From the IMG/VR virus record IMGVR_UViG_2568526230_000001, positions 1 through 4,110 of that record: DNA of 4,110 nt, one strand, 5' to 3'. Source of the DNA: a virus (lineage: Duplodnaviria > Heunggongvirae > Uroviricota > Caudoviricetes). The notes beneath the pieces are model-generated. The model made no database searches. It saw only the letters and a list, made by a program, of their open reading frames with translations, and had not been told where the DNA came from. Positions 1 through 4,110 of this stretch are shown here, in pieces (positions within the stretch are counted from its first letter, which is position 1; every line of letters begins with the position of its first letter). The translations under genes were made by a program, and so were the position numbers.

Positions 1-570
1 GTCTGAAACGCAGGCTGCAACGCCGAAAGCAGTAAAGGCCGCGTATGACCTTGCTAACGGTAAATATACTGCGCAGGATGCCAGCACGACGCGAAAAGGC
101 CTTGTCCAGCTCAGTAGCGCCACCAACAGCGCGTCTGAAACGCAGGCTGCAACGCCGAAAGCAGTAAAGGCCGCGTATGACCTTGCTAACGGAAAATATA
201 CTGCGCAGGATGCCAGCACGACGCGAAAAGGCCTTGTCCAGCTCAGTAGCGCCACCAACAGCGCGTCTGAAACGCAGGCTGCAACGCCGAAAGCAGTAAA
301 GGCCGCGTATGACCTTGCTAACGGTAAATATACTGCGCAGGATGCCAGCACGACGCGAAAAGGCCTTGTCCAGCTCAGTAGCGCCACCAACAGCACGTCT
401 GAAACGCAGGCTGCAACGCCGAAAGCAGTAAAGGCCGCGTATGACCTTGCTAACGCAAAATATACCGCTCAGGACGCCACGACGGCACAAAAAGGGATAG
501 TCCAGCTCAGTAGTGCCACCAACAGCACGTCTGAAACACTGGCCGCGACATCGAAAGCTGTTAAGGCGGT
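1..570 (+). repeat. Tandem direct repeats, 132-bp period, about 4.3 copies, in frame within the tail fiber gene (44-aa shaft repeat)
   Basis: The motif gtctgaaacgcaggctgcaacgccgaaagcagtaaaggccgcgtatgacc... recurs at 1, 133, 265, 397 and 529. Copies 1-3 are near-identical, copy 4 is diverged and copy 5 is partial. Frame 2 translation gives [44 protein letters not shown] per unit with no stops. This resembles the phage tail fibre repeat family (recalled from memory, not searched). Confidence 0.9.
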
Positions 571-1921
571 AATGGATGAAACGAACAAGAAAGCGCCCTT
601 AAATAGTCCTGCACTGACCGGAACGCCAACAACACCAACTGCGCGACAGGGAACGAATAATACCCAAATCGCAAGCACGGCTTTCGTTATGGCTGCGATT
701 GCCGCCCTTGTAGATTCGTCACCTGATGCACTGAACACGCTGAACGAGCTGGCTGCGGCGCTGGGCAACGACCCGAATTTTGCGACCACCATGACTAACG
801 CGCTTGCGGGTAAGCAACCGAAAGATGCCACCCTGACGGCGCTGGCCGGACTTACTACTGCGGCAGGCAAGTTTCCGTATTTTACGGGGAATGATGTCGC
901 CAGCCTGGCAACCCTGACAAAAGTCGGGCGGGATATTCTTGCGAAATCGACCGTTGCTGCCGTTATCGAATACCTCGGTTTACGAGAACTCGGCACAAGC
1001 GGGGAGAAAATACCGTTACTCAGTACAGCGAATACCTGGACTAATCGACAAACATTCAGCGGTGGCCTTTCTGGTGAACTATCCGGCAATGCTTCTACAG
1101 CTGCAAAATTAAAAACTGCCAGGAAAATAAGCAATGTGGCTTTTGATGGTTCCTCCGATATCACATTAAAAGCAAGTCATGTTGGTGCGTTTGCCTTAGG
1201 GAAAACAGGAAGCACCGTTGCGAATGATAAAGCAGTTGGATGGAACTGGAGTAGCGGAGCCTATAACGCAACTATTAGTGGTGCATCAACGTTAATTATT
1301 CATTTTTATATGGGAGAAGGAAGTTGTCCTGCAGCTCAGTTTCGGATTAATTATAAAAATGGCGGTATTTTTTATCGTTCAGCCCGTGATGGTTATGGTT
1401 TTGAAGCCGACTGGTCCGAATTTTACACCACCACCAGAAAACCTTCAGCAGGAGATGTTGGTGCACTGCCGTTATCTGGTGGTCAACTGAATGGTGCACT
1501 GGGTATCGGAACATCCAGTGCTCTTGGCGGTAATTCGATTGTATTGGGTGATAATGACACGGGCTTTAAACAAAATGGCGATGGTAATCTGGATGTTTAT
1601 GCTAATTACGTCCATGTTATGCGCTTTGTTCCCGGAAGCATTCAAAGTAATAAGACCATAAATATTACGGGGCGTGTTAATCCCTCGGATTACGGTAACT
1701 TTGATTCCCGTTATGTGAAAGATGTTCGACTTGGTTCACAGCAATATTATGGAGTGAACAACTGGCGAACATGGAATTTCCAGTGCCCTTCAGGTCATGT
1801 ATTGTCTGGTATTAATGTTCAGGATACAGGGTCTAACTCTGCCGATAATATAGCGGGTGTTTATTACAGACCCGTTCAAAAGTATATAAATGGCACCTGG
1901 TATAATGTAGCGAGCGTTTAA
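2..1921 (+). CDS. Side tail fiber protein, 5'-partial (constant shaft plus currently expressed variable C-terminal tip, cassette A)
   Basis: Frame 2 is open from the window edge to the TAA at 1919-1921. The ORF track starts at Met-572 only because that is the first ATG; the upstream frame is open and encodes the 44-aa repeats. The C-terminal half is AT-richer and ends in the conserved motif [17 protein letters not shown]. It resembles E. coli prophage Stf-family fibers (recognition from memory). Confidence 0.88.
589..1041. repeat. Left arm of long perfect inverted repeat (partner 3658-4110); coding, conserved fiber region
   Basis: The reverse complement of 3658-4110 matches 589-1041 base for base in every stretch compared by eye (590-690, 689-760, 761-1040). 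The first mismatch is at 1042 (ctaat vs ccaat). The outer boundary cannot be determined because the right copy runs off the window at 4110. Confidence 0.9.
963..988. other. Putative recombination (crossover) site for a Din-family serine invertase, left copy (gix/cix/pix/hix-like)
   Basis: TTATCGAATACC-TC-GGTTTACGAGAA is a 26-bp imperfect palindrome with 12-bp half-sites around a central TC. It matches Mu gixL (recalled as TTATCCAAAACCTCGGTTTACAGGAA in this orientation) at about 22 of 26 positions. It lies in the codons for VIEYLGLRE, so exchange is in frame. Confidence 0.7.
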
Positions 1922-1922
1922 T

Positions 1923-2450
1923 ATGATGCACTTAAAGAACATAAAAGCGGGTAATGCTAAAACACTGGAACAGTATGAGTTAACAAAGAAACACGGAGTT
2001 ATCTGGCTTTACTCTGAGGACGGAAAAAACTGGTATGAGGAAGTGAAAAACTTTCAGCCAGACACCATAAAGATTGTTTACGATGAAAATAATATTATTG
2101 TCGCCATCACCAGAGATGCCTCCACGCTTAATCCCGAAGGTTTTAGCGTCGTCGAGGTTCCCGATATAACGGCCAATCGTCGGACCGATGATTCCGGTAA
2201 GTGGATGTTTAAGGACGGAGCTGTGGTTAAACGGATTTATACGGCTGACGAACAGCAACAACAGGCCGAATCACAAAAGGCCGCATTGCTTTCCGAAGCT
2301 GAATCAGTCATCCAGCCGCTGGAACGCGCTGTCAGGCTGAATATGGCAACAGACGAGGAACGCACACGACTGGAAGCATGGGAACGCTACAGTGTTCTGG
2401 TCAACCGTGTGGATACGGCAAATCCTGAATGGCCACAAAAGCCTGAATAA
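1923..2450 (+). CDS. Tail fiber assembly protein (Tfa/U-like chaperone) cognate to cassette A
   Basis: A 175-aa ORF starting ATGATG one nucleotide after the fiber stop (TAA-t-ATG). The N-terminus [14 protein letters not shown]...[13 protein letters not shown] is typical of Tfa proteins of lambdoid/e14/Mu-type phages and is paralogous to the - strand ORF 2479-3012. Confidence 0.85.
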
Positions 2451-2455
2451 AAATT

Positions 2456-2475
2456 AAGGCCCGTTATCGGGCCTT
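2456..2475. terminator. Putative bidirectional intrinsic terminator hairpin between the convergent tfa genes
   Basis: A perfect 8-bp GC-rich stem (aaggcccg / cgggcctt) with loop ttat. On the - strand transcript it is followed by AAUUUUUAUU. On the + strand the downstream U tract is weak (gucucauu), so the call is stronger for the - direction. Confidence 0.55.
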
Positions 2476-2478
2476 GTC

Positions 2479-3012
2479 TCATTCAGGTTGTTCGGGAAAT
2501 GTTACTGGCAGGCTGGAGGTGTCTGTGGATTCGACTTTCTGCGCATAGAGCATCCACTCGGTTAATTTTTGTTTATTCTCGTCGGAAATGATGCCCAGCC
2601 GTAGCTGTGAGTCCCATAGCTGAGTTTTATCCCTGACAAGTTGCAACAGGCTCTGCTTTTCATTTTCCGCTTGTTGCCTCTGCTCTTCCTCGGTATAAGT
2701 TCGCTTTACCACTACGCCATCTTTGAACATCCATTTCCCCGAAATATCAGCCCGGCGATTTGCTGTAATATCAGGTAATTCAACGACGCTTGCGCCTTCC
2801 GGATTAATTGCTGAAACATCCTTTTCAATACAAATAATAACGCCGTTATGGTCATAGACCATTTTCAAAGTGTCTGGCTGGAAATTCTTTTGTTCCTCAT
2901 ACCAGTTTTTTCCATCAGCTGAATAAAGCCATTTGATGTTAAATTGCTTTGTTAGCTGGTATTGCTCTTTTGTTTTAGGGTTGCCAGCAGTAATGTTTTT
3001 TAAGTGCATCAT
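2479..3012 (-). CDS. Tail fiber assembly protein (Tfa/U'-like chaperone) cognate to cassette B
   Basis: A 177-aa ORF beginning MMHLKNITAGNPKTKEQYQLTKQ... The N-terminal roughly 110 aa are highly similar to the + strand Tfa and the C-terminal roughly 60 aa are divergent. A GGGGAG Shine-Dalgarno-like motif lies upstream of the ATGATG, which sits 2 nt after the stop of the upstream - strand fiber cassette. Confidence 0.85.
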   Translation of the reverse strand: MMHLKNITAGNPKTKEQYQLTKQFNIKWLYSADGKNWYEEQKNFQPDTLKMVYDHNGVIICIEKDVSAINPEGASVVELPDITANRRADISGKWMFKDGVVVKRTYTEEEQRQQAENEKQSLLQLVRDKTQLWDSQLRLGIISDENKQKLTEWMLYAQKVESTDTSSLPVTFPEQPE

Positions 3013-3014
3013 CG

Positions 3015-4110
3015 TTAAATACTCCCCGCGTTATACCACGTCCCATTAATGCAATACTGAATTGGCCTTGCCTGTGTTGTATCAATTAATTCATCACGGT
3101 TTCCGTTAACTGAACCCGTAACGACATAACCTGACCTGTCAGACCAGCCGGGACCATTCCATGTCTGAACAGATGACAGACCGCCAAGGCGAATACCTGT
3201 AATAAACCTTGAGTTACATTCTGTCCGCGTATATGCACCAACATCTCCCGCTGAAGGTTTTCGTGTCGTGGTATAGAAATCTGACCAACCTAATTCAAAC
3301 CCATAACCATCACGAGCCGACCTGTAGGAAATGCCACCATTTTTATAATTCACACGGAATTGTACGGCAGGACAGCTACCAGCATTTATATTAAAGTGAA
3401 GAATTAATGCAGATGCACCACCAATCATGGCGTTATATGCACCACTATCCCAATTCCATCCAACGGATGTATCACCATTAACAGTATTACCTGTTTGTCG
3501 GAGTGCAAATGCATTGACATTTTTGGCACTAATTGAAATATCGCTAGAACCATCAAAACCAACTCCAGCAATTTTTCGTGCTGTTTTCAGCTTTGTTGCA
3601 GTAGCGGCATTGCCGGACAGTTCCCCAGAAAGGCCACCGCTGAATGTTTGTCGATTGGTCCAGGTATTCGCTGTACTGAGTAACGGTATTTTCTCCCCGC
3701 TTGTGCCGAGTTCTCGTAAACCGAGGTATTCGATAACGGCAGCAACGGTCGATTTCGCAAGAATATCCCGCCCGACTTTTGTCAGGGTTGCCAGGCTGGC
3801 GACATCATTCCCCGTAAAATACGGAAACTTGCCTGCCGCAGTAGTAAGTCCGGCCAGCGCCGTCAGGGTGGCATCTTTCGGTTGCTTACCCGCAAGCGCG
3901 TTAGTCATGGTGGTCGCAAAATTCGGGTCGTTGCCCAGCGCCGCAGCCAGCTCGTTCAGCGTGTTCAGTGCATCAGGTGACGAATCTACAAGGGCGGCAA
4001 TCGCAGCCATAACGAAAGCCGTGCTTGCGATTTGGGTATTATTCGTTCCCTGTCGCGCAGTTGGTGTTGTTGGCGTTCCGGTCAGTGCAGGACTATTTAA
4101 GGGCGCTTTC
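3015..4110 (-). CDS. Alternative side tail fiber C-terminal cassette (cassette B, Sv'-like), 5'-partial, currently in the silent orientation
   Basis: The - strand frame is open from the window edge (4110) to the TAA at 3015-3017. The first roughly 150 codons in the window are identical to the + strand fiber (inverted repeat), followed by a diverged homologous region and then a unique tip. It ends in ...RPIQYCINGTWYNAGSI, conserved with cassette A. Met-4010 from the ORF track corresponds to internal Met-689 of the + strand gene, so it is probably not the true start. Confidence 0.8.
   Translation of the reverse strand, partial: KAPLNSPALTGTPTTPTARQGTNNTQIASTAFVMAAIAALVDSSPDALNTLNELAAALGNDPNFATTMTNALAGKQPKDATLTALAGLTTAAGKFPYFTGNDVASLATLTKVGRDILAKSTVAAVIEYLGLRELGTSGEKIPLLSTANTWTNRQTFSGGLSGELSGNAATATKLKTARKIAGVGFDGSSDISISAKNVNAFALRQTGNTVNGDTSVGWNWDSGAYNAMIGGASALILHFNINAGSCPAVQFRVNYKNGGISYRSARDGYGFELGWSDFYTTTRKPSAGDVGAYTRTECNSRFITGIRLGGLSSVQTWNGPGWSDRSGYVVTGSVNGNRDELIDTTQARPIQYCINGTWYNAGSI
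3658..4110. repeat. Right arm of long perfect inverted repeat (partner 589-1041)
   Basis: See the left arm. Coordinates pair as p and 4699-p. The arm extends to the window edge and may continue beyond it. Confidence 0.9.
3711..3736. other. Putative invertase recombination site, right copy (inverted relative to 963-988)
   Basis: TTCTCGTAAACC-GA-GGTATTCGATAA is the exact reverse complement of the 963-988 site. The central dinucleotide is identical to the left site in inverted orientation, as required for inversion rather than deletion. Confidence 0.7.

Follow-up and report, generated by a model that had tools for sequence, protein, structure and literature searches.

As far as the excerpted sources go, the Phage_fiber_2 (Pf2) repeat was first noted in the fibers of lambda (Stf), P1, P2, and Mu (Sandmeier, 1994, cited in PMC4134206; PMC3368898), and little is known about its structure (Ghosh et al., 2012, PMC3368898). 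The prophage Phi1 of Escherichia coli EC958 contains a 2,773-bp invertible segment, for which about 50% of the PacBio reads were found in each orientation, and the 5' crossover site of this segment (Phi1_5prime) is TTATCGAATACCTCGGTTTACGAGAA (Forde et al., 2014, PMC4134206, Table 3). The authors of the EC958 study also warn of assembly artefacts that result from mixed orientations (PMC4134206). In our search of the literature, we found no relevant work on P2-like prophages in which the number of fiber repeats varies, and essentially none on the structure of the repeat (Pfam PF03406).

In the present work, we have analysed a tail fiber gene with an array of such repeats in a stretch of 4,110 nucleotides of viral DNA (this whole stretch is referred to below as the window) and have compared it with the related prophages of E. 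coli. The account that we propose, to which we assign a probability of about 0.8 when it is taken as a whole, is that the gene contains a run of PF03406 modules in which whole units are gained and lost in frame, that the window carries an expanded allele of the G-type unit, and that the stalk of the fiber is presumably changed as a consequence. The features of the window are listed in Table 1 and the evidence that bears on the different parts of this account is discussed below.

Tandem Repeats Finder (TRF) identifies a single array in the window, with a period of 132, 4.3 copies, 94% matches, 0 indels and a score of 959, and the same 132-nt spacing was given again by a separate repeat search of the window. 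The units of this array were cut from base 1 of the window and their types (viz. G and A) were called at 14 diagnostic positions. Copy 1 is identical to both copy 2 and copy 3 at 131 of the 132 positions, while copies 2 and 3 are identical to each other at 130 positions. The identity of copy 4 to the first three copies is 117–118/132 (88.6–89.4%), and the last copy resembles the unit over only approximately its first 39 nt. Two substitutions distinguish the G-type copies from each other: a T to A change at window position 193, which is synonymous (GGT to GGA, Gly), and a change at unit position 131, where G is found at window positions 131 and 263 and A at 395 (GCG, Ala, to ACG, Thr). The three G-type copies thus represent three different sequences (viz. 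T61/G131, A61/G131, and T61/A131). The frame that begins at base 2 is open across the array up to the stop codon at 1919–1921, and each unit corresponds to 44 codons in this frame. These results agree with the preliminary description of this DNA, in which three of the roughly 4.3 132-bp copies were described as almost identical. The differences that it quoted (ggtaaatat vs. ggaaaatat and cagcgcg vs. cagcacg) are exact and correspond to window position 193 and unit position 131, respectively, and the array does reach the left edge of the window, as the TRF array begins at base 1. A chance origin of the array is ruled out by the TRF score together with the Pfam E-value (E = 1.3e-89). The 40-aa open reading frames that occur in another frame, one per unit (45–167, 177–299, and 309–431), are by-products of the repeat and give no sign of being genes. 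The divergence between the G and A units is bimodal, positions 1–59 being identical and 14 differences being found in positions 60–118 (window 397–455 vs. 456–528), and this distribution suggests an old conversion or crossover within the unit.

Table 1. Features of the window, with their positions and the basis or character of each assignment.
Feature	Position	Strand	Basis or remark
Tail fiber gene (P2 gpH / Mu gpS type)	2..1921	+	Open frame, Pfam; N-terminus off-window
Tandem array of 132-bp (44-codon) Phage_fiber_2 units	1..567	+	TRF and Pfam PF03406; array cut by left edge
Copy 1	1..132	+	G-type, G at unit position 131 (ends ...NSA); unit typing
Copy 2	133..264	+	G-type, A at unit position 61 (GGA), G at 131
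Copy 3	265..396	+	G-type, same as the lone G unit of the dominant allele (L002)
Copy 4	397..528	+	A-type; first 59 nt same as G type; present once in most alleles
Copy 5, partial and diverged	529..567	+	Leads into unique part of fiber
Left crossover site, 26 bp, TTATCGAATACCTCGGTTTACGAGAA	963..988	+	Left boundary of invertible segment
Invertible segment, two alternative fiber C-termini and two chaperones	989..3710		Both orientations among related loci
Tail fiber assembly protein, Caudo_TAP, 175 aa, of expressed tip	1923..2450	+	PF02413, E = 4.2e-38
Alternative tail fiber assembly protein, Caudo_TAP, 177 aa	2479..3012	-	PF02413, E = 3.6e-37
Alternative fiber C-terminal tip (Sv' equivalent), silent here	3015..3710	-	Open reading frame, weak gp37_C match
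Right crossover site	3711..3736	-	Exact inverted copy of left site
Perfect inverted copy of constant fiber region 589-962 (fold-back)	3737..4110	-	Occupies place of invertase gene in ordinary prophages

The repeated unit belongs to the Pfam family PF03406 (Phage_fiber_2), which matches the fiber in the window in 5 stretches with 293.9 bits against a gathering cut-off of 22, the best of them covering profile positions 1–42 of 42. A search of the 44-aa unit against the Pfam models of fibre repeats, which had been proposed earlier, has thus identified the family of the unit. The encoded fiber is 99% identical to a 740-aa E. coli "tail fiber protein," and its C-terminal tip in the present orientation shows a weak match to gp37_C. 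In a full-length relative (P0021, 740 aa, 99% identical), PF12571 is found at 6–153, PF03406 is found three times, and gp37_C is found at 502–576. Because the repeats of the full-length relatives are located between PF12571 and the C-terminal tip, the earlier wording "fiber shaft" is appropriate, and, judging from this domain order, the repeats may reasonably be called a stalk that would lie between the tail-collar attachment domain and the tip.

At the DNA level, window positions 222–3740 exhibit 99.7% identity to a prophage that is present in many E. coli genomes, ST131 strains included, and the fiber gene belongs to a P88/P2-like (Peduoviridae) prophage of the "Phi1" type found in the ST131 strain EC958. 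The closest isolated phages are members of Xuanwuvirus (viz. P88, P884B11, and Shae_phiSM), and the P2-type tail module of the related loci comprises the baseplate genes V, W, J, and I, the fiber, the chaperone, and then a resolvase-family recombinase. A gene for a 625-aa SASA/DUF6645 protein, annotated as a sialate O-acetylesterase, is found between the lysis and tail genes in four of the related loci (L001, L002 at 130–2007, L005, and L006) and is absent from six others (L003, L004, and L008–L011); it is possibly a cargo gene of the ST131-type prophage.

To compare the arrays of the relatives, the fragment of the fiber present in the window was used in a protein search, and the repeat regions of the best 120 sequences, which are mostly 98–99% identical, were parsed. 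Two full unit types are present in these relatives: a G-type unit that corresponds at the protein level to copy 3 of the window, and an A-type unit that corresponds to copy 4. Every parsed allele has a half-unit on the N-terminal side and ends its array with a partial unit, and an A unit is usually present once, so that it is the number of G units that varies. The dominant allele has one G unit (G1A1, 740 aa) and accounts for 63 sequences among the best 120, one of which is found on at least 1000 contigs, while the allele lacking a G unit (G0A1, 696 aa) is represented among the best 120 by 12 sequences on 36 contigs. Two G units (G2A1) are found in one sequence (P0002) of 780 aa, which is equivalent to 784 aa as its start is called 4 aa later, and three G units (G3A1) are found in one sequence (P0003) of 749 aa, which equals the 661-aa form with the alternative tip plus 88 residues. 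The window itself has at least three G units, a higher number than in nearly all of the related genomes. The fibers with 0, 1, 2, and 3 G units are 98–99% identical outside the array, and the length changes in this series are whole multiples of 44 residues. The DNA of the relatives' loci confirms the allelic series unit by unit. The two G units of one locus (L004) are identical to each other, and the three G units of another (L003) all have a private T at unit position 49 (49T), a substitution that neither the window nor L004 has.

The array is hence an in-frame coding VNTR, with a unit that is a multiple of three and a copy number that differs between near-identical alleles. The preliminary description had regarded it as an in-frame substrate for copy-number change, and a comparison of copy number in relatives had been set beforehand as the test of this idea. 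The idea has held up well: the number is not fixed, the relatives range from 0 to 3 G units, and the frame is kept every time. Two other in-frame rearrangements of this region were also observed, each of them on a single contig: in a protein of 900 aa (P0001), 160 residues are duplicated in tandem from a point within the G unit, and in a protein of 753 aa (P0070), 13 residues are duplicated inside the A unit.

The frequency of the expanded arrays was assessed by means of a diagnostic query for which a match of about 100% is possible only for arrays with two adjacent G units. Such arrays were found in 4 of approximately 400 complete E. coli genomes with a G unit (~1%). One of these genomes (EC361) has the G2A1 arrangement, and in the other three (HNSQ2209, TUM14668, and E423) a G unit is followed by a G/A chimera. 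Expanded alleles are thus present in complete-level assemblies, and their rarity argues against very high rates of copy-number change, such as would be expected of a contingency locus. A G-type unit with another full unit before it is also present in one metagenome contig and in one IMG/VR contig, and the isolated phages have one or two full units (one in Wphi gpH, one in Shae_phiSM, and G1A1 in P88). The junction between copies 1 and 2 of the window (units ending in ...AGCGC, followed by GTCTG) had no match in the GTDB species genomes, the JGI metagenomes or IMG/VR, and no array identical to that of the window was found in the complete E. coli genomes. As the exact allele of the window is found in no searched collection, its copy number rests on one record.

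The quality of this record has a bearing on the number of G units. Positions 589–1041 and the inverted positions 3658–4110 of the window match each other with 0 mismatches in 453 nt, and the window leaves the arrangement of the dominant-allele locus (L002) from position 3728 onward, at the crossover core. The right junction is the left junction of molecules of the opposite orientation read backwards, and the window hence most likely merges the two orientation states, i.e., both orientations of the invertible segment were assembled together. A true palindromic rearrangement, which would be unstable, is another possible source of the fold-back. Because of the fold-back, the exact copy number in this record should be viewed with caution.

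A more far-reaching possibility is that the extra copies in the window are themselves an assembly artefact and that the true array contains one G unit, through which the assembler looped. The presence of the fold-back at 3737–4110 in the same record is in keeping with such an error, as are the absence of the exact allele from every collection searched and the position of the left end of the window inside the array, where repeat-induced contig breaks occur. Mirror-image misassemblies of this locus also reach "complete" genomes. In one such E. coli chromosome (L001, NZ_CP170378.1, 23–15911), the whole prophage tail module is present as a mirror-image duplication of >15 kb that is centred on the invertible segment, with frameshifts on one arm only and with the region lying at the start of the record, and it looks like a fold-back misassembly that was deposited in RefSeq. 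However, an assembler that loops through a repeat duplicates existing sequence and makes no new combinations of SNPs, whereas the three G copies of the window are distinct, and alleles with two and three G units are found independently in other assemblies, complete chromosomes included. It is therefore unlikely, in our view, that looping produced the extra copies, and the copy-number polymorphism of the family as a whole does not depend on the allele of the window. One contig of a short-read metagenome (L016, ERZ857775 NODE-997, locus 1–128) likewise ends inside the array after a G unit, an example of how short-read assemblies break at this array. The combination of near-identical 132-bp units with an inverting segment makes the locus hazardous for assembly and annotation, leading to contig breaks, fold-backs, and mirror duplications.

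Both RecA-dependent unequal exchange and RecA-independent replication slippage can act on direct repeats of this size (~130 bp). The mechanism at this locus would be one or the other of these processes, which the sequences cannot separate. The differences among the alleles argue for repeated events of recombination or slippage within the array and against a single inherited event. Since the private 49T is found in all of the G units of L003 and is absent from the window and L004, the expansions are independent of each other. In three complete genomes (L009–L011), the second unit follows the G type up to diagnostic position 103 and the A type at position 118, a separate A unit is absent, and the array ends near locus position 5243; this G/A chimeric unit is the footprint of a crossover. 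Misaligned exchange in the stretch of 59 nt common to the G and A units would yield exactly the 696-aa G0A1 allele. The 61A variant of copy 2 is also found in two other loci (L008 and L017), and the array of the window is hence composed of pre-existing unit variants rather than of three fresh duplicates of a single unit. Exchange between different alleles or between co-resident prophages is plausible, given that the matching genomes have a median of 3 matching places each.

The near-identity of the G-type copies can be read in more than one way. The preliminary description noted that the innermost copy is the most diverged and took this to suggest homogenisation of the distal copies. The first of these points is correct, as is evident from the lower identity of copy 4, but homogenisation is better regarded as a minor rival than as the main reading, since the dominant allele contains only one G unit. 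Concerted evolution is itself driven by unequal crossing-over, and an old multi-copy array in which the distal copies were homogenised by gene conversion, with no recent gain of units, is in accord with the G and A units being the same over 59 nt before the 14 differences in positions 60–118, with the occurrence of G/A chimeric units in L009–L011, and with the state of copy 2 at position 61 (61A), which is the A-type state at that position. It is nonetheless a very improbable explanation, for it is unit number, and not sequence alone, that varies among the closest relatives (one G unit in the dominant allele and 0, 2, or 3 in the rarer ones), a long ancestral array is unsupported by the isolated phages of the group with their one or two full units, and the private SNP shared by all three G units of L003 is what the amplification of one unit predicts. 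We favour a recent amplification of one type of unit over homogenisation as the main source of the near-identity of the copies, because a single G unit is found in the dominant allele, the arrays of the group's phages are short, and the alleles differ in unit number.

In the mechanism that is suggested by these results, the near-identical 132-bp units would misalign, either when sister copies or co-resident copies undergo homologous recombination or by replication slippage. Since the units are 132 bp in length and nearly identical, recombination or slippage would add or remove whole 44-residue modules in frame. The window carries an expanded allele, with at least three G-type units compared with one in the common allele. 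Each module presumably adds one segment to a trimeric proximal stalk, which would extend between the baseplate-attachment domain and the switchable tip, and a change in copy number would be predicted to alter the length or flexibility of the stalk and not the receptor specificity, the latter being changed through the invertase-driven switch of the tip. Unit number would thus probably influence the length of the fiber. An AlphaFold2 single-sequence monomer model of residues 1–233 is of poor quality, with a mean pLDDT of 42, and a sequence search of the PDB matched only entries for Mu gpS, with a single motif each.

It may also be asked whether the array serves to tune the reach of the fiber, with hosts that have a thicker O-antigen or capsule selecting for extra 44-residue modules. 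If this were true, one gene would contain two independent systems of variation, the length of the stalk being varied by repeats and the receptor by inversion. Repeated, independent gains and losses of units agree with such tuning and equally with neutral slippage, and sporadic, nearly neutral events explain the rarity of expansion (~1%) no less well than a functional role does. We regard selection for reach as quite unlikely. The alleles with one to at least four full units do provide a natural series with which the role of this structurally uncharacterised repeat in the fiber can be tested.

The array belongs to the constant part of the fiber, the tip of which undergoes switching by a Gin/Cin-type invertase, and it is located just upstream of the invertible cassette. 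The 26-bp crossover sites have two matches in the window, where 0 are expected by chance, and they resemble the annotated cixR of phage P7. The relatives differ from the window in the outer half of the right crossover site (TTATTTAAAACC...), and next to this site they have the invertase gene, with Resolvase and HTH_7 domains; in L002 a recombinase gene is found at the matching place. No serine invertase gene was found in the window, and the inverted constant region of the fiber occupies the place expected for it. The silent tip shows 72–97% inverted similarity to positions 989–1465. The segment is in the (+) orientation in L002, L004–L007, and L009, and in the (−) orientation in L003, L008, L010, and L011. 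A comparison of positions 1042–1465 with 3234–3657 indicates that, beyond the perfect repeat, the similarity of the alternative tips is 97% over ~90 nt and then 72%, after which none is left; in terms of protein, they are alike in a graded fashion over their first ~160 residues. A P1-like reading, in which crossover sites would be found at the outer ends of a long inverted repeat, was considered and rejected, as the only sites are inside (963–988 and 3711–3736) and the sequence outside both of them is the constant region of the fiber.

The family of the repeat, the fiber gene, its prophage, and the invertible switch next to it had all been described before, and the behaviour of the array is ordinary for this repeat; only the high-copy allele and the explicit in-frame allelic series are new. 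These results indicate that the number of Phage_fiber_2 modules is polymorphic, in exact steps of 44 residues, in the fiber of a very common ST131-type prophage of E. coli. For the engineering of tailocin and phage fibers, they show where modules come and go in nature with the gene remaining intact, although their practical value is modest.

In comparison with the systems described previously, the fiber of the window is most similar to that of EC958 Phi1, which is the common 740-aa allele (Forde et al., 2014, PMC4134206). The DNA of the two is 99.7% identical over window positions 222–3740, and the left crossover site, both tips, and both chaperones are common to them, as are the G, A, and partial units. 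The Phi1 fiber has one G-type unit, however, where the window has at least three, and the invertase gene of Phi1 comes directly after a right crossover site with the other outer half, whereas the window has the inverted constant region of the fiber at this place. The members of PF03406 and the window are alike in having a repeat of ~42–44 residues with the motifs of the family, present in tandem in the constant part of the fiber. The copies in the family members are usually diverged, in contrast to the three copies of the window that are 98.5–99.2% identical in their DNA, and the prophage lineage of the window also departs from the usual picture of the family in that the copy number of PF03406 is polymorphic within one lineage. 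The G segment of Mu and the C segments of P1 and P7 (Gin/Cin) likewise have inverted 26-bp sites and two C-termini, each with a chaperone, and a resolvase-family invertase is adjacent to the segment both in Mu, P1, and P7 and in the relatives of the window. The DNA of the chaperone genes and the adjoining ends of the fiber tips is ~90% identical between the window and the segments of Mu, D108, P1, and P7. Unlike in Mu, P1, and P7, the host element of the window's segment is a P2/P88-like prophage and the repeat array is located outside the switch, in the constant part of the fiber. Lastly, the fiber-like proteins of EHEC prophages (Ghosh et al., 2012, PMC3368898) also include Pf2 repeats and have alleles whose lengths differ by multiples of a repeat period, but in those proteins it is the Gly-X-Y (collagen) and heptad (coiled-coil) repeats that vary, whereas in the lineage of the window it is the Pf2 module itself.
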